Program-made: the position numbers and the translations under genes
Shown here: positions 3,756 through 63,956 of the stretch, piece by piece
Layout: every line of letters begins with the position of its first letter
Position numbering within the stretch: position 1 is the stretch's first letter
Source: a virus
Lineage: Duplodnaviria; Caudoviricetes
Reading direction: 5' to 3' (one strand)
Length of the DNA: 64,000 nt
Virus record (IMG/VR): IMGVR_UViG_3300025601_000007
Notes under the pieces: generated by a model
The model's database searches: none
Seen by the model: the letters and a program-made list of their open reading frames with translations, nothing else
Told to the model about the DNA's origin: nothing

Positions 3756-5864
3756 TTAAAAATCTAGCTCTAATTGGAAGGTTAAATACCTTGCCGAGCT
3801 TTTCTTAATAGGATAAGTAGGCTTCCCTACAGCCACAAGTAAGCCTTGGTCGTTAAGTATGCCTATTTCGGTTATATATGTGTTTGCGTCTTCTGCCCCA
3901 TCAAAACCTCCGTTATTAGAAGCGTTGAACTCGCTGTCTTTTGCTACAATTGTAAACACAGTTTTGTAGGTGGTAGACATTATTTTTGTTTTGATGTTTC
4001 CAAAGAAGAAATCTTCGTTTCCATATGTCATCCCAGTAAGATTTAAATAATCACTGTTGAATGTGAAACCGCTTGAAACCCCATATAAATTATTGCTGGG
4101 TCCAGCAATAAAATTTGGCTGAGTTGTCCCTGATTTTATGTCATCTAGAGAGACAATAAATTGCTGCCCCTGTAAGTATGTTGGGTCGATGGTTGTGTGT
4201 GTTGACTCACCAGAGTAAACTCCATTACCAAACGCTTTAATATCAGAGGCGCCAGACCACTTTCCTGGGTGCAACGCATCCAAGCCTTTGTCTTCATCTT
4301 TTCTAACTTCTTGAACTAAAATCTGAACTTTATTGGCACTCCACCCTGTTCCAGAGTATGTAGTGAACCCTGCTGTGTTCCTTAGGTAGGGGAATGCTTT
4401 AGTTGGAAATGAGCACGTTAAATACTGAGCATATCCGTTTTCGTCAGTAAAGCCTTCAACCTTACTTATATATCCACAATGCATAGCTTGCTTGTAACCG
4501 TAGGAATCTGTTGAGCTGTATGGAGTTTTAGATTGAGTAAAATATGTTACATAGTAGTAATGGTCGCTTCTCAATAGCCCTGACGTATTCATTACTGTAG
4601 AAGGAGACTTTGGTGCAGACTGACTTCCAACAATCAAAGGAGGGAGCGTGTGGTTACGGTCGGTCTTATAAGACATTGCCGTCAATAACTCAGGGTCTGT
4701 AACTACAATAAGTTTTAGCTTATTATAGATTCTTCCCACAATTAAAGCACTACTTGAAGTCCCATCCTTTAATAGGGTGAATGAGGTTTTCGCTGCTTGG
4801 TCAAAATACACATCGCTTCCTTCGTCTGTAAATCTCTGGCCACTCTCATAAGCTTGTCCTGGGTTAGCACTTTTTCGATGCCACATAATGCTGGGCATGT
4901 CAACCTGAGTTGTTCCTGGGACTAATTGTTCAGCATATGTATTTCCCGTGTACTTATTAGAGTAGTGAATAAACCCTACTTGTCTCAAGTCATCTTCGAA
5001 TCCAAAATATTGTTTTGTGCCACTATACTCTTTGGAGGCAAAAGTAGAATAACTATATCCTGTGTTGGCTCCTATAGCCATTTTTGTTTGACCAATCTCT
5101 CTTGACGTTCTTACAATATTTAAGTTCCAGACTGGACAATTTTCCGTTGCTCCAGAGCCATAGTATGTTTCTACGCCATTCCAAGGATATTCATACCAAG
5201 CAACGTTTCTTGTGCCTGAAGCAAATATAGGAACAGGCCTGTCTACTCGTATTGAATCAACAGAAGCATCTGCCGTTCTTATCCTATAAAATAAATCCAC
5301 AAACGGGGCAGTACTAATTAATTGCGGTTCTGAGCCTATAGGTGCAGAATACCTTAAAAGCAGGAGATTTCCGCCTCCTAGCATTACTTCGGTTGAGGAG
5401 CTCCACGTAGCTGGTCCACTAATTAACCCTGTTGTTGTTTGTCCGCTCCTGATGTATCTGCTTGGATGCAATATGTAATCATTAACAGTTGCTGAGTCAG
5501 CTGTTGTTGCAGACCAGAATCCGACTGAGCTAGTTTGAGCCGTAGCAATCTGTTTTGTCACGAACACTTTTGACGTTAAATCTAAAGCATTTGTTCCATC
5601 AAAGTTTAATGTCGGAAGGGCAGGTTGGTTATCGTGTGGTTCCATAACCCTGCTTTTGCAGATGTTAAACATCTCTGTGGCTGGAGGATTAAGGTTTGCA
5701 AAATAAGGTGTATCTGGATATCTTCTATTGAACTCGTAATTGATTTCTCTATCGGAAACCACTGCTTGACTAAAATTTAGCCTACCCAATGCCAATTCCT
5801 TTCGGCCCTTGTTGGTGAGCTTAACACTGATAAATGTGGTTGGTTCTTGTTGCAAAAAAGCCAT
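3756..5864 (-). CDS. Baseplate/tail structural protein, paralog 1 (702 aa)
   Basis: Has both family termini; shares CPVWNLNIVRTSREIG and many other blocks with the adjacent 5895-8093. Confidence 0.65.
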   Translation of the reverse strand: MAFLQQEPTTFISVKLTNKGRKELALGRLNFSQAVVSDREINYEFNRRYPDTPYFANLNPPATEMFNICKSRVMEPHDNQPALPTLNFDGTNALDLTSKVFVTKQIATAQTSSVGFWSATTADSATVNDYILHPSRYIRSGQTTTGLISGPATWSSSTEVMLGGGNLLLLRYSAPIGSEPQLISTAPFVDLFYRIRTADASVDSIRVDRPVPIFASGTRNVAWYEYPWNGVETYYGSGATENCPVWNLNIVRTSREIGQTKMAIGANTGYSYSTFASKEYSGTKQYFGFEDDLRQVGFIHYSNKYTGNTYAEQLVPGTTQVDMPSIMWHRKSANPGQAYESGQRFTDEGSDVYFDQAAKTSFTLLKDGTSSSALIVGRIYNKLKLIVVTDPELLTAMSYKTDRNHTLPPLIVGSQSAPKSPSTVMNTSGLLRSDHYYYVTYFTQSKTPYSSTDSYGYKQAMHCGYISKVEGFTDENGYAQYLTCSFPTKAFPYLRNTAGFTTYSGTGWSANKVQILVQEVRKDEDKGLDALHPGKWSGASDIKAFGNGVYSGESTHTTIDPTYLQGQQFIVSLDDIKSGTTQPNFIAGPSNNLYGVSSGFTFNSDYLNLTGMTYGNEDFFFGNIKTKIMSTTYKTVFTIVAKDSEFNASNNGGFDGAEDANTYITEIGILNDQGLLVAVGKPTYPIKKSSARYLTFQLELDF

Positions 5865-5894: not shown

Positions 5895-8093
5895 TTAAAA
5901 TTCTAATTTCAATTGGAGCACTTTCCATTCTCCGCTACCTTTTCGAATAGGGCGCGTCGGTTTCCCGACAGCTACAAGTTCTCCATCAGAATTTAGTACT
6001 CCTATTTCTGTAATGTATGTGTTGTCATTTTTTTCTGCATCGAATGAAGAATTCTGTGAGCTGTTTAATTCTCCGCCCTCAACAACTAAAGTGATGTACG
6101 TATCATATCGCACTTTCTTTTTAGCAGTCTTAATATTTCCAAAGAAGTGATTTTCTGAACCCAAAGCTAATCCGTTATTTTTTTCATCATTGTAAAGATT
6201 AAAATAGTCATGCAACTCGTATATGTTTCTGGTTGAGCCACTTAAAAGGAGAGGCATTGTGTCGCCAGATGTTATATCGGCTTGCGAAACAATGAACTCA
6301 GCGTTGTAAAGCTGGGACGGCTCAATTAAGCTTGAGCTTGCATGTCCAAAAGAAAACACTCCTGCAGGGTCTTGGTTTTGCGCATTTTTGTTCAAGCTTG
6401 AACAACCAGACCACTTTCCAGGATGCAAGCTATCTGCACCTCCGTCCCTGTTTACAGGTACTTCTTGAACTAATATTTGAACTTTACTAGCTCCCCAGCC
6501 TGTTCCTGAGAATGATTCAAACGTTTGACTGTTTCTCATGTACGGAAGCTGGCCCTGAGGAAAAGTTCCTTTAAGGTGTTTGTGGTATCCATTTTCGTCC
6601 GTGTGACCGCTTAGTTTTTGAACATAACCACAGTGCATGTAATAGTGATGCCCAAAATTTCTACCTTCAAGATAAGCGTTTGAGCTCAGTTCTCCCAATT
6701 CACCTGGGCTCATGTAATAGGTCATGTAGTAGTTATGATTACTTTTCATAAACCCAGGCTTCTTGCCAGTGTCGAACTGAGGCTTAGGGCTTGACACAGA
6801 AGAGAAATTCATTGGCGGAAGTGTCCAGTTTCTATTTGACTTATATGACAACGCCGTCAATAGTTCTGGGTCTGTTAAAACAATCGTTTTAAGGTCGTAG
6901 TAAACTCGACCAACTGTTAATGGACTTCCTGTAACAGCGTCACGAAGGAGTGTATATGATGTTCCCGCTTTTTTATCTTGATAGATAGTACTTCCGTAAT
7001 CTGTAAATCTATGGCCAGAGCTTATAGCTGTTCCACTTATGAAAAGATTCCCGCTTTCATCTGTGGCTCTGTGCCAAAGTAAATCAGGGATGTCTACCTC
7101 AGTGGCGCCTGGAATTATGGAATCCCAGTAGGTTTGACCTGATGATTCATTGGAGTAATGCAAGAAGCCTACTTGTCTTTGATTTTCATCAAAGTCAAAC
7201 ATTTCTTTTGCCCCTGCGTATGGAACAGAGCCGTAGTTGGTGTAGCTATGGCCTATGTTCCCTCCTACAGCTTTTCTTTTGTGTCCAATTTCCCTTGATG
7301 TTCTTACGATGTTTAAATTCCAAACAGGGCAATTTACTGTTACGGCGGAGCCATAGTAGTTATCTACGGCGTCAAATTCATAGACAAAATATGGTAGAGG
7401 CTTGTCTTGCCCAGACTGAGCAGCAATAAAAGGAGGGTTTCGGTCTAAAGTTCTCCTGCCTGAAGAAATTTCATTTGTTACGCGATACCATTTAGAAATC
7501 ATTGCCACGTCGTTATAGCGAGCATTTGACATCCCTAAGAACCCATTAGCGGTGTTAATAGACGTGGTAGTGCGTAAATACAACAGCTGACCCAATTTTG
7601 GCAATACTCCAGCTAGAAGGTTGGAGGTACCAAAAACGAAGTCAATAGCTCCTTCTTGTATGCTTGTGCTGTTTGAGCCTGAGTAAACCCAGTTATTTTT
7701 TAGCAGGTATCGCCCAATCTTGTGTTTGTTACCATTCGTTAATGCGCTCCAAAATCCTACAGAATCCGTTTGAGCAGTTGTTGTCTCGTTTTTTACGTGC
7801 ACTCTTGAGTTTAGCGAGTAAGGTTGAGAGCCGTCATAATTTATTGGACTTAGAGCAGGGTGGTCATCTTTTGGTGAAAAAATGCTGTTTCCACTTAAAG
7901 CTAGTTCGGTGCCGCTATTTGGGTTTAGATTCCAAAGCGTATCATACCTACGGTCAAAAGAGTAGTTTGTTTCTCTATCCGATAACACGGCTTGGTCGAA
8001 AGTCAAGTTACCTTGAGCCAGTCGTCTTCGTCCTGTGTCGGTTAGTTTTATGTTTATGTACGTGTTGTCGTCCTGAGTGAGAAATGACATCAA
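5895..8093 (-). CDS. Baseplate/tail structural protein, paralog 2 (732 aa)
   Basis: Collinear paralog of 3756-5864; C-terminal YITEIGVLNSDGELVAVGKPTRPIRK. Confidence 0.65.
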   Translation of the reverse strand: MMSFLTQDDNTYINIKLTDTGRRRLAQGNLTFDQAVLSDRETNYSFDRRYDTLWNLNPNSGTELALSGNSIFSPKDDHPALSPINYDGSQPYSLNSRVHVKNETTTAQTDSVGFWSALTNGNKHKIGRYLLKNNWVYSGSNSTSIQEGAIDFVFGTSNLLAGVLPKLGQLLYLRTTTSINTANGFLGMSNARYNDVAMISKWYRVTNEISSGRRTLDRNPPFIAAQSGQDKPLPYFVYEFDAVDNYYGSAVTVNCPVWNLNIVRTSREIGHKRKAVGGNIGHSYTNYGSVPYAGAKEMFDFDENQRQVGFLHYSNESSGQTYWDSIIPGATEVDIPDLLWHRATDESGNLFISGTAISSGHRFTDYGSTIYQDKKAGTSYTLLRDAVTGSPLTVGRVYYDLKTIVLTDPELLTALSYKSNRNWTLPPMNFSSVSSPKPQFDTGKKPGFMKSNHNYYMTYYMSPGELGELSSNAYLEGRNFGHHYYMHCGYVQKLSGHTDENGYHKHLKGTFPQGQLPYMRNSQTFESFSGTGWGASKVQILVQEVPVNRDGGADSLHPGKWSGCSSLNKNAQNQDPAGVFSFGHASSSLIEPSQLYNAEFIVSQADITSGDTMPLLLSGSTRNIYELHDYFNLYNDEKNNGLALGSENHFFGNIKTAKKKVRYDTYITLVVEGGELNSSQNSSFDAEKNDNTYITEIGVLNSDGELVAVGKPTRPIRKGSGEWKVLQLKLEF

Positions 8094-58697: not shown

Positions 58698-60557
58698 TTA
58701 GCTTTTTAATTCAAGTTTATACCTCTTCATAACATCTATTAGAATACCTGAGCGAACGATTTCATCTTCTGTGAATTGTATAAAACCAATTTTTGGAAGG
58801 CCTTGAAACCTATTAAAAGCATCGTCTAATCCTGAGCGCTGACCATTTCTTAGATAAAGGTCTGTTTGGTCTGTGTCTCCGATAATTATAAGCTTTGAAC
58901 TTTCTCCTTTACGAGAAATCCAAAGCTTTAACCCAGCTACTGTTGTATTCTGCGCTTCATCAATTATTGCTACTGAATTTTCAAACGTTTCACCACGAAG
59001 ATATGCAAGAGGAACATATTTAACAACGTCATTCTGAATGAAGTCCTTTGTCTTTGTTGAGCCTACAAGTTTTTTAAAATTTCCCAAAAATGAGTCCATA
59101 TAGGGGTCTATTTTTGAGTCTATGTCTCCAGGTAAGAACCCTATTGATTCGCCAGCTTCTACAATTGGTTTTGTGAGTATAATCTGGCTATATTCGTTGT
59201 CAATTTTCAGTAATTCTAAAGCAGTTTTTAAACTAAGTAAGGTGTTGTGAGTAACATTATAATCTCTTGTCACATATAAATGTCTTGGGTGGTCTATGTG
59301 AATACAAACACACTCTTCTTCTCCTTGTTTTTCGACACCAGTAATATATTTTATTTTCATTCTTTTTTTATCAGAAAATAGTCCTGCTTTTCTTGATAAC
59401 TTAAAAGGGTTAAGCGTTTCAAATAAAACAGTGACAACATAGCATATCTTTCCTTGCTTTTTTTCTCCAAATTTATCTGTAAAAAAGGGTTTTTTAGTTC
59501 TAATTGAAGAAATACCACCAAGGCTTCTAATTAGCTCCATGACTTGACTAGCTAAAATTTGCGACGTGGTGTAATATTCAATAGAAGAGCCATTTTTAGG
59601 GATATGCCCATCTGTATCCATTAAACCCCTTAGTAACTCCACCCTATCTTCAACAGAAGAGTAGAGATATTTATCAGGAATTATTTTCTCATGAGATTTT
59701 TGACCCATTAAACCTAAATCCCTCATCTCAAAGAGGAGTAAATTATTCGCCTTATTTGACCTTGTCTTAGTTGTTATGTAATAATCATAATTATCTCCAG
59801 GTTTTTTACTTATCTTAACAGGGTGAGGGAGGCTTTGCTTAAACTCACAAATAATTTCTTCGTCCGCAGAGCTAAACGAGACAAAATGTTGGCTGTAGCA
59901 CCCGTCGCCTATTAAACAGCCCATTAGATAAGGGTTAATTATTAGTTCTTTATTTGCAAACTGTATAGGATTGCAGATGGGGATTGAGTGGTTTTTCCTG
60001 CCTCGGTTAGTCAGTAAGCTCTCTTTTATTTCAAAAGTAGTTTTTACTGCTCCTGACAGCGGCTCTCTTATTGCAACCCCATTCCTTTTTTTTCTATTAT
60101 TTCTATCAGCTTCTGTTTGTGTTTCCCATAAATGCTCACCACAGCATAGTGTATGCGTTCCATCAGAAAAAGACACCTTATAGACATCTTTTTCTCCTTG
60201 TGGATGAATAGAGTTGACATTTACAGGTGTTCCATCAACCGAAATTACTTTATCTCCAGGACGAATGCTTCCGATTTCCACAAAACCGCCAGGCGTTAAT
60301 ATAGGCTCAGTTAGTGGTTGCGCCTTACCTGTCCCAGCAGCTCCAGCAACAAATGTGATTTCATTTTCCATGATAGTTTTGCACAGAAGCTTTTGCTTAG
60401 CGTTTTTGTGCTTAATATCTTTGTTGATTTGAAAATGAGATATTGCATTAAGCCTATCCATCTGAGCTTCCTTATCTCTCTCTAAGCCCATTTTTTCCAA
60501 GTCGCTTTGTATCTCACGAGATGTTTTTTGGCGTTGTACTTTTCTGTTTTTATTCAT
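58698..60557 (-). CDS. phoH: PhoH-family ATPase containing an intein (259 aa after splicing)
   Basis: GAAGTGK|T Walker A split by the intein; IILTKPIVE, GFLPGD, LRGETF, DEAQN, GDTDQTD, IVRS. Confidence 0.92.
   Translation of the reverse strand: MNKNRKVQRQKTSREIQSDLEKMGLERDKEAQMDRLNAISHFQINKDIKHKNAKQKLLCKTIMENEITFVAGAAGTGKAQPLTEPILTPGGFVEIGSIRPGDKVISVDGTPVNVNSIHPQGEKDVYKVSFSDGTHTLCCGEHLWETQTEADRNNRKKRNGVAIREPLSGAVKTTFEIKESLLTNRGRKNHSIPICNPIQFANKELIINPYLMGCLIGDGCYSQHFVSFSSADEEIICEFKQSLPHPVKISKKPGDNYDYYITTKTRSNKANNLLLFEMRDLGLMGQKSHEKIIPDKYLYSSVEDRVELLRGLMDTDGHIPKNGSSIEYYTTSQILASQVMELIRSLGGISSIRTKKPFFTDKFGEKKQGKICYVVTVLFETLNPFKLSRKAGLFSDKKRMKIKYITGVEKQGEEECVCIHIDHPRHLYVTRDYNVTHNTLLSLKTALELLKIDNEYSQIILTKPIVEAGESIGFLPGDIDSKIDPYMDSFLGNFKKLVGSTKTKDFIQNDVVKYVPLAYLRGETFENSVAIIDEAQNTTVAGLKLWISRKGESSKLIIIGDTDQTDLYLRNGQRSGLDDAFNRFQGLPKIGFIQFTEDEIVRSGILIDVMKRYKLELKS
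59244..60323 (-). mobile_element. Class-3 (Ala1, WCT) intein with a LAGLIDADG homing endonuclease, 360 aa
   Basis: Starts AQPL right after GTGK and ends THN before Thr+1; block B HLW, block F ECVC, block G THN; LAGLIDADG blocks LIGDGC and LRGLMDTDG. Confidence 0.88.
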
Positions 60558-60652: not shown

Positions 60653-61744
60653 ATGTCTGAAAAAATTAGCAACGAAGAACTTAAACACAAGATTGTTACC
60701 ACCATAAGAGAGGAAGGTCTTGACGGAATCTTTGGGGAGGAGGTTGTGCTTGCTATTCAAGAAAAAGTTAAGCACATGTACAAACAGCAGCTTGAGAAGT
60801 CTGTATTTGAAGACGTACCGCAAGAAGAGCTTCAAGAGGAAGTTCAGGAAGAGGAAGATGGGCTTCAAGAAACGGATACTAGACCGCCTGTGCAAGGTGG
60901 TCCAAATCAGTTTCCTTATGAAGATGATTTTATTGACTCAAATGCTGTACCAGGGCAAGACGTTGAGCAGGAAGATATAGGGATGACAGCTGGAGAGGCT
61001 GTGTCAAATGTTCCTTACACTCCTGTTCGTGCAAATACTGCACAAGTTCCCAAGCCATTACAAAACCAGGAGCCAGGTGAGATAATTGTGTTTGACTATA
61101 ATGATGTTGCAGCAGTAAGTGGCGAAGGGTTAGCTAACAAACCATTTAGAACAATGGATGACCCAGAGTCTTTGAAGACTATTCACGACTTTTGGATGCA
61201 GGAGGGTAAGACTGATGTTAAAGTGTACGCCGCTAAGTTTGAACAAATAGGGATTGTTAAGTACGATTACCGAAGTGGCACTGCACTGTTTACAGACGAC
61301 AAAGAAGCTCCAGAAGTGATAAAGCCTTCGTATCAAGAAAATCCTTATGCTACACCTAGCACTCCTCATATAGATGAGCCTTCAACAGAAATCGACCTCA
61401 GAAAATCTATTGAGTCATCTGTCGATTTGGAGGCTGTTTTGCTAAAGGTAATGAAAGACATTTTAAAAGATGGACTAGGTGTTGCGCAAGAGCCGACTGT
61501 GCCTACCGAAGTACCAACTGCTCCAGCTGCTCAGCCAGTATATGAGAGACAGACGAAAGAGAACGTTATTAATACGTTTAAAAAAGTTGAAACACCAGAG
61601 GCCATTCAAAATAGACTTCTGGGCGAAAATGATAATCGTGTGGAGTATTTAGGTCAGTCGTCAGAGTATGCGACGTATTTATTTAAAGATAAAAGATACG
61701 TCGTTTTTAATGAGAATGAAAAGACAGCATATCGTCAACCTTGA
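60653..61744 (+). CDS. Acidic, Pro-rich hypothetical protein (363 aa), possibly virion/internal
   Basis: TATTTA box 17 nt upstream; IREE, LQEE and VQEE motifs. Confidence 0.65.
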   Translation: MSEKISNEELKHKIVTTIREEGLDGIFGEEVVLAIQEKVKHMYKQQLEKSVFEDVPQEELQEEVQEEEDGLQETDTRPPVQGGPNQFPYEDDFIDSNAVPGQDVEQEDIGMTAGEAVSNVPYTPVRANTAQVPKPLQNQEPGEIIVFDYNDVAAVSGEGLANKPFRTMDDPESLKTIHDFWMQEGKTDVKVYAAKFEQIGIVKYDYRSGTALFTDDKEAPEVIKPSYQENPYATPSTPHIDEPSTEIDLRKSIESSVDLEAVLLKVMKDILKDGLGVAQEPTVPTEVPTAPAAQPVYERQTKENVINTFKKVETPEAIQNRLLGENDNRVEYLGQSSEYATYLFKDKRYVVFNENEKTAYRQP

Positions 61745-61784
61745 TATTAAGAGGATAATTGACTATTAATTATAAAATAAAAAC

Positions 61785-62060
61785 ATGGAAACAGTTTGGA
61801 AAATAACTAACACAGGAAGATTAGACAAGATTAAGTTCACCGTTGCTATCGCATCGAATAAATCTCCAGGAGTATTCTTAAAGAAAGACGAATTTATTCT
61901 TTCACAAAAAAGAATGACTACAATGCTTGATGCCCAAGCCAAGAGAGGCTACGTGGCAATTGAAGAATTTGAAAATGTAGACAACATCGTTATCGGAGAG
62001 GTAATGAAGATGTCGGATTCTGAGTACGCTCAGAAGCGAGTTCAAGATTACTCTAAGTGA
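61785..62060 (+). CDS. Hypothetical protein (91 aa); its stop codon is supplied by the IS-derived element
   Basis: Ends TCT AAG TGA, where the G-TGA belongs to the element's right end. Confidence 0.7.
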   Translation: METVWKITNTGRLDKIKFTVAIASNKSPGVFLKKDEFILSQKRMTTMLDAQAKRGYVAIEEFENVDNIVIGEVMKMSDSEYAQKRVQDYSK

Positions 62061-62285
62061 ACTACCCACCCACGCCAGAGGCGATGGGATGGGCTTCAAG
62101 GGTCAACGCTCCAACTAGTGTTGGCAACTTACCTTGATTTTTTCTGTCAGTTCCTGACAAAATATTTCTTAATGTACAAAAATACAAAAGTTTAAAGAAA
62201 TAACAAAATTTATTTAAAATAATTAAGATAAGGTCGCTTACATCCCACCCACACTACGTGATGAGTGGGCTTTACGCTCCGTAAT
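62057..62285 (-). mobile_element. Non-autonomous IS200/IS605 (IS608-type) mini-element with no tnpA or tnpB
   Basis: Minus strand: TTAC target, then left end with AAAG guide and hairpin (62244-62269); right end GAAG + hairpin (62065-62093) + TAGT-TCAC. The left boundary is 62280 or 62285 because two TTAC sites lie 5 nt apart. Confidence 0.75.
62177..62207 (-). promoter_or_regulatory. Bacteroidota-type promoter inside the mini-element, facing its right end
   Basis: TTTG-N19-TATTTTTG, an exact match to the -33 TTTG / -7 TAnnTTTG consensus. Confidence 0.65.
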
Positions 62286-62677
62286 GTAAAAATGCAATTC
62301 AAGGTCAAAAAGAAGGAAGGCTAAAATGTGCTCCAGTATCAAAAGCTGAAAGAGAGATAGTAAATAGACTCAGAGAAAAAAGCATAAAATCTGAATCTCA
62401 GTTTTCGTTAGAATCATTCAAGTTCGACATATACATCCCTGATAAAAATCTTCTTATAGAATATAATGGAGACTATTGGCATTGTAATCCTTTAAAATAT
62501 TTACCTAGTTTTATTCATCCTCATAAAAACAAAACAGCTAAAGAACTTTGGAAAGCTGATGATAATAAGAAAAAGCTTGCAATTAAGTCTGGATTCAATC
62601 ACCTTACTATTTGGGAATCTGAATATAATGCAGATAAAAATAAAATAATAGAATCACTGATATCATATGGAGAATAA
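62285..62677 (+). pseudogene. 5'-truncated Vsr/PD-(D/E)xK-type homing endonuclease, missed by the ORF track
   Basis: Open frame without a start: ...SKAEREIVNRL...FKFDIYIPDKNLLIEYNGDYWHCNP...GFNHLTIWESEY...; its stop overlaps the next ATG region. Confidence 0.7.
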
Positions 62678-63956
62678 AAGAATTAAATTGCTAGTTTGCC
62701 CGTCAGATGTGCAAGGCGTCGGGCATTTTCGCTCAATCTGGATGGCTCAGCAACTTAGGAAATCCCACAAAGAGGAGCTCCAAATTAAGATTGATGTCAC
62801 TCCTGATTTTACCAATATAAACTACCTGTCATCATTTGATATAATTCATTTCCACAGACAGCTTGGGCCATTTGAAGCATCTGAGAAACTATTCGCGGAG
62901 CTTCAATCCAAAGGGACTGTGCTGGTGATGGATATTGACGACTTCTGGAGTCCGCCTCCAACTCACCCTCTTTATGATTTGGTGAAAGCTGAAAAAATTG
63001 ACAAGCATATAGAGAACAATTTGAAACTTGTTGATTGGGTCACTACGACCACAGAGATTTTTGCAGAAAAAATCAAAGAGGTCAATAAAAATGTGGTTGT
63101 GATTCCGAACGCTGTAAACCCCGAAGCTAAGATGTGGAGGAGTGAAGCGGTTCCAAACCCTACTGACCGTACAAGAGTTGCTTGGATTGGTGGGTCATCT
63201 CACTTACATGACTTGTTTCTTCTGCGTGACTCAATGGAGATGCTTAATAAGGACCAAGAGCTGAAGGATAAGACACAGATTGTAATGTGTGGATTTGATA
63301 CCAGAGGTAATCTGACCAGCATCGACGACAATGGGAACAGGCACGAAAGACCTATCCAACCACACGAGACGATTTGGATGCAATTCGAAAGAATATTTAC
63401 AGCAGACTACCAGCTTCTAAAAGAGGACAAGGAGTATTTTAACTGGCTGTATAAAATTAAAAATGAAAAGTATCCAAACATGGATGAAAAACCATATTTG
63501 AGACGCTGGACTTTACCTTTGAAAACATATGCAACCCATTACGACCATTGTGATGTTTGTTTAGCTCCTCTAGTAGACCATTACACTCAACAAGTAGGTC
63601 AGGGCCAGAAGGCAAAAATAGTTAAGCGACCTCACATTTTCAACAAAGTAAAATCTGAGTTGAAAGTTATTGAAGCGGGTGTTAAAAGAAAAGCGCTAAT
63701 CGCGCAAGATTTCGGAATCTATTCTAAGACTATTAAAGACGGCGAGACGGGTATTTTGGTTAAGAACAACAAAAAGGGGTGGTATAACGCCATTAAGCAG
63801 GTTGTCGATGACCCTGGGTACCGACAGGAGCTTGCAGACAATCTTCACGACTGGGTGATGGATGAATATTCCATCGATAGAATTAATGGAATCAGAGCAA
63901 GTTTCTACGAGCAAGTTTACGAGGGAATGAAACAAAAAGACAAAATCATCGTATAG
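62667..63956 (+). CDS. GT-B fold (GT4-like) glycosyltransferase
   Basis: GVGHFRSI, MDIDDFW, VIPNAVNP, WIGGSSHLHDL, CLAPL...FNKVKSELKVIEAG. Confidence 0.85.
   Translation: MENKRIKLLVCPSDVQGVGHFRSIWMAQQLRKSHKEELQIKIDVTPDFTNINYLSSFDIIHFHRQLGPFEASEKLFAELQSKGTVLVMDIDDFWSPPPTHPLYDLVKAEKIDKHIENNLKLVDWVTTTTEIFAEKIKEVNKNVVVIPNAVNPEAKMWRSEAVPNPTDRTRVAWIGGSSHLHDLFLLRDSMEMLNKDQELKDKTQIVMCGFDTRGNLTSIDDNGNRHERPIQPHETIWMQFERIFTADYQLLKEDKEYFNWLYKIKNEKYPNMDEKPYLRRWTLPLKTYATHYDHCDVCLAPLVDHYTQQVGQGQKAKIVKRPHIFNKVKSELKVIEAGVKRKALIAQDFGIYSKTIKDGETGILVKNNKKGWYNAIKQVVDDPGYRQELADNLHDWVMDEYSIDRINGIRASFYEQVYEGMKQKDKIIV

Follow-up and report, generated by a model that had tools for sequence, protein, structure and literature searches.

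A short stretch of DNA without a gene of its own lies across the 3' end of a 91-aa gene of a salt-lake phage and has ends of the IS200/IS605 kind, raising the question of what this element is, how it arose, and whether RNA made from it could guide a TnpB nuclease supplied from elsewhere. The window, i.e., the whole stretch of 64,000 nucleotides that was analysed, corresponds to bases 4155-68154 of a 76-kb IMG/VR virus record with a CheckV completeness of ~24%, and its DNA was also found to be present in 20 salt-lake metagenome runs, all of them DNA runs, with no RNA run among those listed.

Identity and boundaries of the element

The first-pass annotation had described an IS608-like element of ~224/225 bp on the minus strand; the element and its strand were upheld, while its length was revised to 229 bp (62057-62285). 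The boundaries were set by position weights derived from the family together with an empty site in the related phage locus L232. The element, its ends and the gene into which it is inserted are as follows:

61785-62060, plus strand: host 91-aa gene, whose final G and TGA stop now come from the element, the protein being unchanged; its homologues in relatives end in AAG-TAA
62057-62285, minus strand: whole mini-element (PATE) of 229 bp, made up of left end, promoter, omegaRNA scaffold and right end, as given by a two-block alignment to L110-like full-length elements
62244-62285, minus strand: left end, with a 12-nt linker (62285-62274), the DNA guide AAAG (62273-62270) and an imperfect 26-nt hairpin (62269-62244), from DNA folding and family conservation
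62057-62097, minus strand: right end, with the DNA guide GAAG (62097-62094), a 29-nt hairpin (62093-62065), the tail TAGTTCAC and the cleavage motif TCAC (62060-62057)
62286-62290, minus strand: target or transposon-adjacent motif (TAM) TTTAC, just 5' of the left end, overlapping the TAA at which the plus-strand 91-aa gene originally ended

The element has the attributes of a non-autonomous IS200/IS605 derivative (PATE), i.e., subterminal hairpins at both ends, all on one strand and without terminal inverted repeats; insertion 3' of a short specific motif; and no protein-coding gene of its own, despite being homologous to Y1 TnpA- and/or TnpB-encoding elements. No target-site duplication accompanied the insertion, as is evident from the window and from the empty allele of L232, in which TTTAC is followed directly by the right flank. 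The lack of an ORF, as originally claimed, was borne out, the only ORF being one of 41 aa (in a 63-codon open frame) that represents a remnant of the TnpB C-terminus. The further claim of a tnpB-deleted cassette is substantiated by the two-block alignment to full-length tnpB elements and by the retention of the whole omegaRNA scaffold, and the mini-element is thus almost certainly a tnpB-deleted IS200/IS605 derivative that retains a predicted promoter and the full scaffold.

Both ends were located on the minus strand in the arrangement first reported, namely AAAG plus hairpin on the left, and GAAG, hairpin and TCAC on the right. The 32-nt left-end stretch that comprises the guide AAAG and its hairpin occurs once in the window and 0 times in shuffles, while the DNA folds of the two end hairpins (62269-62244 and 62093-62065) gave z = -2.3 and -3.4, respectively. 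The pairing of AAAG with TTAC and of GAAG with TCAC by the IS608 rule, which had been proposed for this locus, also stood, and extends to covariation between guide and target across 43 distinct left ends among the matches listed. In these, a conserved flank motif precedes the guide by 12 nt, with TTTAC at -17..-13 relative to AAAG; its last base is C in 9 of the 12 elements with the guide AAAG (TTTAC) versus 1 of the 31 with AAAA (TTTAT), and this covariation of the last guide base with the last target base is the pattern that the IS608 guide rule predicts.

The position of the left cut required correction. It had been placed after a TTAC abutting GGAGCG, but the cleavage site is instead the first TTAC (62289-62286), 5 nt further out; the rule that the TAM equals the transposon target motif (given as TTAC) was kept, while the motif itself shifts by 5 nt and reads TTTAC. 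The gene end in L232, ...CTCTAAGTAAAAAT..., is the joint expected from excision of 62057-62285 and not of 62057-62280, and this empty site and the family left-end motif together establish an element of 229 bp with the target TTTAC.

Elements of 43-48 bp with a single hairpin were also observed, after TTTAT-like motifs, at viral loci L008, L035, L039, L042, L058, L062 and L072. In these, the left-end linker, the guide AAAA and the left hairpin arm lead straight into the right-end arm and TAGTTCAC, without the right-end GAAG guide. They look like the smallest derivatives of the same IS family.

Parent family and origin by internal deletion

The terminal 18 bases of the right end were found in >116 viral contig stretches and in 104 prokaryote genome stretches, which are mostly of Bacteroidota (Chitinophagaceae, Flavobacteriaceae, Spirosomataceae, Flammeovirgaceae, Saprospiraceae and Bacteroidales). 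At many of the viral loci a frame of 391-440 codons extends across the right-end hairpin as far as the TAG in TAGTTCAC. The ORF of L110 encodes a true TnpB with HTH_OrfB_IS605, OrfB_IS605 and Cas12f1-like TNB domains, and members of ~1.78 kb additionally carry a divergent tnpA gene for a Y1 transposase of 132-136 aa (Pfam E = 6.9e-35). A full-length insertion sequence with matching ends, the existence of which had been suggested as a check on the element, was thereby found in both tnpB-only and tnpA-plus-tnpB form. The family was observed to span autonomous elements with both genes, tnpB-only elements of ~1.3 kb, mini-elements of ~190-300 bp and the single-hairpin elements of 43-48 bp.

BLAST of the mini-element against L110 aligned positions 2-109 to 5072-5188 and positions 107-224 to 6260-6377. 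The counterpart of the first 109 nt in full-length elements is their left end, which is matched almost as far as the tnpB start; the counterpart of the last 118 nt is their 3' end, so that ~1.07 kb, nearly all of it tnpB, is missing from the mini-element. Two features mark the event:

62171-62174, minus strand: deletion junction, with a 3-nt CAT microhomology (62174-62172) common to both sides, from BLAST and alignments
62065-62175, minus strand: remnant of the TnpB C-terminus (not a gene), 37 residues, 89% identical to residues 355-391 of the L110 TnpB

The remnant frame stops at the TAG of TAGTTCAC, as it does in full-length elements. As read from these alignments, the mini-element is a tnpB-only insertion sequence after internal deletion at a 3-nt microhomology. 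A junction-specific scan of viral_contigs returned no second copy of the exact deletion junction, and the six hits returned by a junction scan of the metagenome contigs were all unrelated chance matches. Since the junction is a singleton, the deletion may have happened in place, in which case this copy may never have been mobile as a mini-element.

At another viral locus, L044 (~4128-4330), a mini-element was observed whose deletion junction lies inside GATGTAA. This heptanucleotide is common to the left-end tail (GGGATGTAAGCGAC) and to the tnpB sequence for the RuvC-III motif (GAGATGTAAATGC), and could act as a built-in microhomology from which gene-less derivatives repeatedly arise.

The omegaRNA scaffold

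The last 150 nt of 35 distinct TnpB-linked elements were aligned, the mini-element being left out. RNAalifold analysis of these 35 elements identified three modules, i.e., stem-loop A, a nested stem-loop B and the right-end hairpin, and predicted no structure in the upstream coding part. Compensatory changes were found in 18 of the 30 scaffold pairs; furthermore, paired cells amounted to 92.9%, versus 36-41% when the partners were slid by 1-3 columns, and the covariation score was 0.509, versus <=0.094 in the slid controls and 0.181 in shuffles. In the window the two upstream modules are located as follows:

62142-62162, minus strand: omegaRNA stem-loop A, 5 of 5 pairs with compensatory changes (35 elements), also present in the mini-element RNA's own fold
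62096-62137, minus strand: omegaRNA stem-loop B, with outer stem CAAGG/CCTTG and inner stem GCCAAC/GTTGG, compensatory changes in 12 of 13 pairs and no non-standard pair

Alignment to a covariance model, which had likewise been suggested as a check, was performed with a model built here from the same 35 TnpB-linked sequences, again without the mini-element. The model returned a single hit in the window (62057-62205, minus strand; 129 bits, E = 8e-25), in which 30 of 30 pairs of the mini-element are standard; for scale, elements of the model's own alignment score ~106-161 bits and the single-hairpin elements of 43-48 bp score 36-63 bits. The full-length elements whose scaffold is most similar to that of the mini-element are those of the L110 or L018 type. 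Consistent with the definition of an omegaRNA, the last 118 nt of the mini-element align to the tnpB 3' end and right end of the 35 full-length elements. The predicted RNA of the mini-element alone folds into the same three modules (-49.2 kcal/mol, z = -5.05), and this fold contains both of the nested stems (caagg..ccttg and ccaac..ttgg) that the first-pass annotation had assigned to an RNA of ~115 nt. The fit to the covariance model and the RNA's own fold together indicate that the mini-element keeps every structured part of the family omegaRNA scaffold. An Rfam search of 61500-62800 with E up to 10 returned nothing meaningful, the best match being to the group I intron at 18 bits.

A second omegaRNA scaffold with right end was observed where the record begins, 4 kb ahead of the window (G000:C1:1-120; L002 9-120, plus strand). 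It belongs to another subfamily, scores 93 bits with model R1 and is cut by the record start; with its flank ACTATAAT... it would carry a different guide.

Promoter and comparison with other gene-less derivatives

62177-62207, minus strand: promoter of Bacteroidota type, exact motif, with the -33 element TTTG (62207-62204), a 19-nt spacer and the -7 element TATTTTTG (62184-62177)

The exact TTTG-N19-TATTTTTG promoter that had been noted to point toward the right end was located at 62207-62177. The motif alone is not rare, with 3 matches in the window versus 1.65 expected, and a sigma-70 promoter scan was uninformative for a promoter of Bacteroidota type. The motif is, furthermore, conserved in the left ends of L070, L075, L032, L110, L031 and L037, where it lies 16 nt before the tnpB ATG, and its retention upstream of tnpB in these full-length relatives identifies it as the element's own tnpB promoter. 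On the basis of the motif and its conservation, the promoter of the mini-element is predicted to be active for minus-strand RNA. Downstream of its -7 box, the deletion junction follows after 5 nt, stem-loop A after 14 nt and the right end after 120 nt.

A second class of mini-elements, of a different subfamily and with a different junction, occupies five different insertion sites on other viral contigs (L007, L022, L024, L038 and L103), and the distance from promoter end to right end is 116-123 nt in this class versus 120 nt in the mini-element of the window. Such equal spacing in two independent mini-element lineages hints at the natural 5' end of the omegaRNA. In total, eight gene-less classes were set apart by eye among the matches listed, and the full scaffold is kept in seven of the eight so defined; by analogy with IS608, TnpA should need only ~50 nt of the right end. 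No recognisable promoter was found in three of the classes (L044, L056 and L028), while L079 has a promoter-like left-end stretch below the strict motif and is without stem-loops A and B. This pattern across classes, which was judged without a formal test, favours selection on an expressed guide RNA.

Predicted guide, empty allele and putative target

62037-62056, minus strand: predicted 20-nt guide in the flank on the 3' side of the right end; it is antisense to the final codons of the 91-aa gene and has a 19/20 match in L232

In TnpB systems the guide is the flank 3' of the transposon right end, while the TAM equals the transposon target motif. An empty allele in relatives had been put forward as something to look for, and was found in L232, where TTTAC is followed by 19 of the 20 guide bases, the first 19 being consecutive. 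This allele was reached through homologues of the 91-aa protein in Logan, JGI and ENA contigs, among which the neighbouring gene in L232 is the closest homologue (86% identical to the 91-aa gene). Two other loci have GTTAC plus 18 of 20 guide bases (L233) and ATTAC plus 15 of 20 (L234). It is plausible, based on this match, that the related phage lineage of L232 holds a target for the guide of the mini-element.

Exact empty-site scans returned no match in viral_contigs (using a pattern from the 224-bp boundary) or in metagenome_contigs (using a pattern spanning both boundaries), and neither TAM-plus-guide sequences nor relatives of the 91-aa protein were found in viral_contigs. The near-identical contigs (about 21, judged from the one contig given for P0001, which stands for 20 similar places) have the occupied architecture, and there is no sign of recent excision of the mini-element among them.

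In the predicted RNA, the right-end tail AGUUCA was observed to pair with UGAACU, which corresponds to guide positions 15-20 (window 62037-62063, minus strand). This pairing could partly mask the guide, or could be due to chance.

Possible sources of TnpB and TnpA

The 76-kb record, which represents ~24% of the genome, holds no tnpB beyond the remnant and no Y1 tnpA. In salt-lake contigs from the same samples, left-end and scaffold sequence nearly identical to that of the mini-element is attached to starts and 3' coding ends of tnpB, these joins being seen as loose contig ends at 62172 and 62174. Contig depth over the right-end hairpin (62057-62110; runs X1, X18, X19 and X20) was 200-460, versus 3.5-17 on the phage flanks, while the run assemblies break at the element hairpins and contain no contig joint across the element, and are thus uninformative as to empty alleles. 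The high depth over the hairpin indicates that the IS family is abundant and highly repeated in the salt-lake communities, thereby fragmenting assemblies. A further possible source of the enzymes is Bacteroidota, in whose genomes the family is common.

The host gene and its neighbourhood

It had been claimed that removal of the element restores AAG-TAA at the end of the 91-aa gene and that the element itself supplies a TGA stop (62058-62060), which holds under either boundary. The homologous gene was found to end in AAG-TAA in three relatives, and a contig of 447 kb was found to contain an identical copy of the 91-aa gene.

Downstream of the insertion, an endonuclease-like ORF (window 62285-62677, plus strand) was observed, with a below-cut-off match to Pfam REase_MTES_1575 (31 bits). 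A search for relatives in the phage record collection returned none, the only hits being 66-bp matches of this ORF to homing endonucleases of Pseudomonas jumbo phages. The ORF lacks a standard start codon (ATG, GTG or TTG), also when the empty site is rebuilt with either boundary; the ATG at 62292, which directly precedes an A-run (CAAAAAG), is in another frame. The ORF is therefore either a frameshifted pseudogene or a case of slippage. Three related phages are without the ORF and have instead a spacer of 18-100 bp with a terminator hairpin, followed by a glycosyltransferase gene. This classical spacer terminator is lost in the window lineage; on the plus strand, the only terminator-like site in 61700-62700 is made up of the stem-loop A complement and a T-rich run behind it (62145-62175).

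A PhoH-like gene (window 58698-60557, minus strand) was also observed, encoding 619 aa with a LAGLIDADG_3 hit, compared with 259-260 aa in two relatives, which suggests that phoH carries an intein or a homing-endonuclease insertion.

Proposed function and alternatives

The best-supported reading, and one that we regard as probable, is that the mini-element works as a guide-RNA-only cassette which is used in trans. The promoter would start a minus-strand RNA near 62172, comprising ~115 nt of scaffold and reading on into the flank, with the guide beginning at 62056. A TnpB of the same family, encoded elsewhere in the phage genome, by the Bacteroidota host or by a co-infecting phage, would then bind this RNA and cut DNA that carries TTTAC plus the guide sequence, i.e., the empty allele, whether it arises by excision or occurs in related phages. 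With an occupied copy as repair template, the insertion would then be put back or spread. A Y1 TnpA acting in trans (e.g., of the L086 type) could furthermore excise and move the mini-element. This reading is favoured by the two-block homology, the intact and covarying scaffold, the promoter spacing in a second mini-element class, the scaffold retained in seven of eight classes, the covariation of guide and cleavage motif, the L232 allele and the possible enzyme sources; counting against it are the lack of tnpB and tnpA in the 76-kb record, the singleton junction, the occupied contigs, the statistically ordinary promoter motif and the pairing of the right-end tail with the guide.

The most serious alternative, albeit an unlikely one, is that the mini-element is an inert remnant in decay, i.e., that a full-length tnpB element inserted, that its gene was lost by a random microhomology deletion, and that any RNA is of no consequence, promoter and scaffold surviving only through the recency of the deletion. 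The singleton junction in both the viral and the metagenome collections is in keeping with such a history, as are the 3-nt microhomology, which is typical of random deletion, and a TnpB C-terminal frame that has stayed open with 89% identity to a full-length copy, suggesting that little time has elapsed. A record of 76 kb without a nuclease or transposase gene also fits it, and other derivatives of the family have come to be without promoter (L044, L056 and L028) or without scaffold (L079). Against decay stand the extent of the loss, in which the ORF was removed between a point directly behind the promoter and one directly ahead of the first scaffold stem, and an unrelated mini-element class with equal promoter-to-end spacing that has spread to five sites. 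The whole scaffold in seven of eight classes (assigned by eye) and the 30 of 30 intact pairs in the present element also argue against it.

Far less probable is a domesticated regulator in cis, whereby the plus-strand hairpins terminate transcripts of the 91-aa gene and the minus-strand promoter makes an antisense RNA. The sole terminator-like site of the region is indeed formed by the element, in a phage that has lost the classical terminator of its relatives, and the predicted RNA is antisense into the 3' end of the 91-aa gene; however, the T-run is weak, no tie was found between features of the element and the neighbouring genes, mini-element copies of other phages lie in unrelated contexts, and conservation of the scaffold is explained by the TnpB-linked relatives. 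A fragment of a group I intron or IStron can be dismissed as extremely improbable, as the Rfam Intron_gpI (RF00028) match behind it (62144-62273, minus strand; 18.1 bits, E = 0.074) is weak and far under the gathering threshold of 50, its matched helices are the IS left-end hairpin and stem-loop A, the element is antisense to the flanking genes, and every part of it is explained by homology to tnpB elements.

The reading of the mini-element as a guide cassette used in trans admits a bolder extension, which we consider rather doubtful, namely that the phage carries guide cassettes only and no nuclease, borrowing TnpB from its Bacteroidota host or from co-infecting phages in a nuclease-free gene drive. 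If this were true, the drive would cut phages with an empty TTTAC-plus-guide site (e.g., those of the L232 lineage) and either convert or exclude them, and selection would keep the promoter precisely where the scaffold begins.

Relation to known systems

IS608 of Helicobacter pylori inserts 3' of TTAC without duplication and has subterminal hairpins, each with a 4-nt DNA guide on its 5' side; its left end pairs AAAG with TTAC and its right end GAAT with TCAA, and left cleavage occurs 19 nt from the hairpin foot. The mini-element is alike in its left AAAG/TTAC pair, in insertion without duplication and in the guide pairing rule, but differs in its right-end pair (GAAG/TCAC), in a left cleavage site 16 nt from the hairpin foot, in a family target that appears to be the pentanucleotide TTTAY, and in the lack of both tnpA and tnpB.

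With regard to guide RNAs, those of the ISDra2 TnpB (reRNA; Karvelis et al., in 2021) and of the OMEGA systems (Altae-Tran et al., in 2021) are reportedly derived from the tnpB 3' end and the transposon right end, and effector-less omegaRNA loci are said to have been seen among OMEGA systems. The mini-element resembles them in the predicted origin of its RNA, in a predicted guide taken from the flank and in a TAM that equals the target motif; it differs from known omegaRNAs in having no similarity to an Rfam family and in a scaffold of ~115 nt with three stem modules.

The term PATE is said to have been coined by Dyall-Smith et al. in 2011 for elements of Haloquadratum walsbyi, reportedly short, non-coding derivatives of IS200/IS605 type with palindromic ends that were presumed to be mobilised in trans. 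These archaeal elements reportedly predate knowledge of TnpB guide RNAs, and no guide-RNA role is said to have been considered for them. The mini-element is likewise short, non-coding and bounded by palindromes but, unlike them, is borne by a phage.

The closest precedent is provided by the PATEs of Geobacillus stearothermophilus, which 'often encode omegaRNAs' that would need TnpB in trans from other IS copies (Meers et al. 2023, PMC10055086); omegaRNA-encoding PATEs are thus already published, and the mini-element adds an example rather than a principle. The two are alike in their protein-less IS200/IS605 ends, in their architecture and in the proposed trans logic. While the G. stearothermophilus elements lie in a bacterial chromosome, the mini-element lies in a giant salt-lake phage and belongs to a different, Bacteroidota-associated subfamily; furthermore, the deletion has brought its promoter right up to the scaffold's 5' edge, and no cognate tnpB is present in the 76-kb record. 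It represents a well-resolved natural derivative of a TnpB transposon inside a phage that would be reduced to its guide RNA. Its merits are that the boundaries are exact, that the parent family includes autonomous elements, that the promoter has come to lie alike in two independent mini-element lineages, and that a natural empty allele combines the TAM with 19 of 20 guide bases. The idea of a trans-acting guide can therefore be put directly to the test with three parts, i.e., the cassette, a TnpB of the family and a target of the L232 type.
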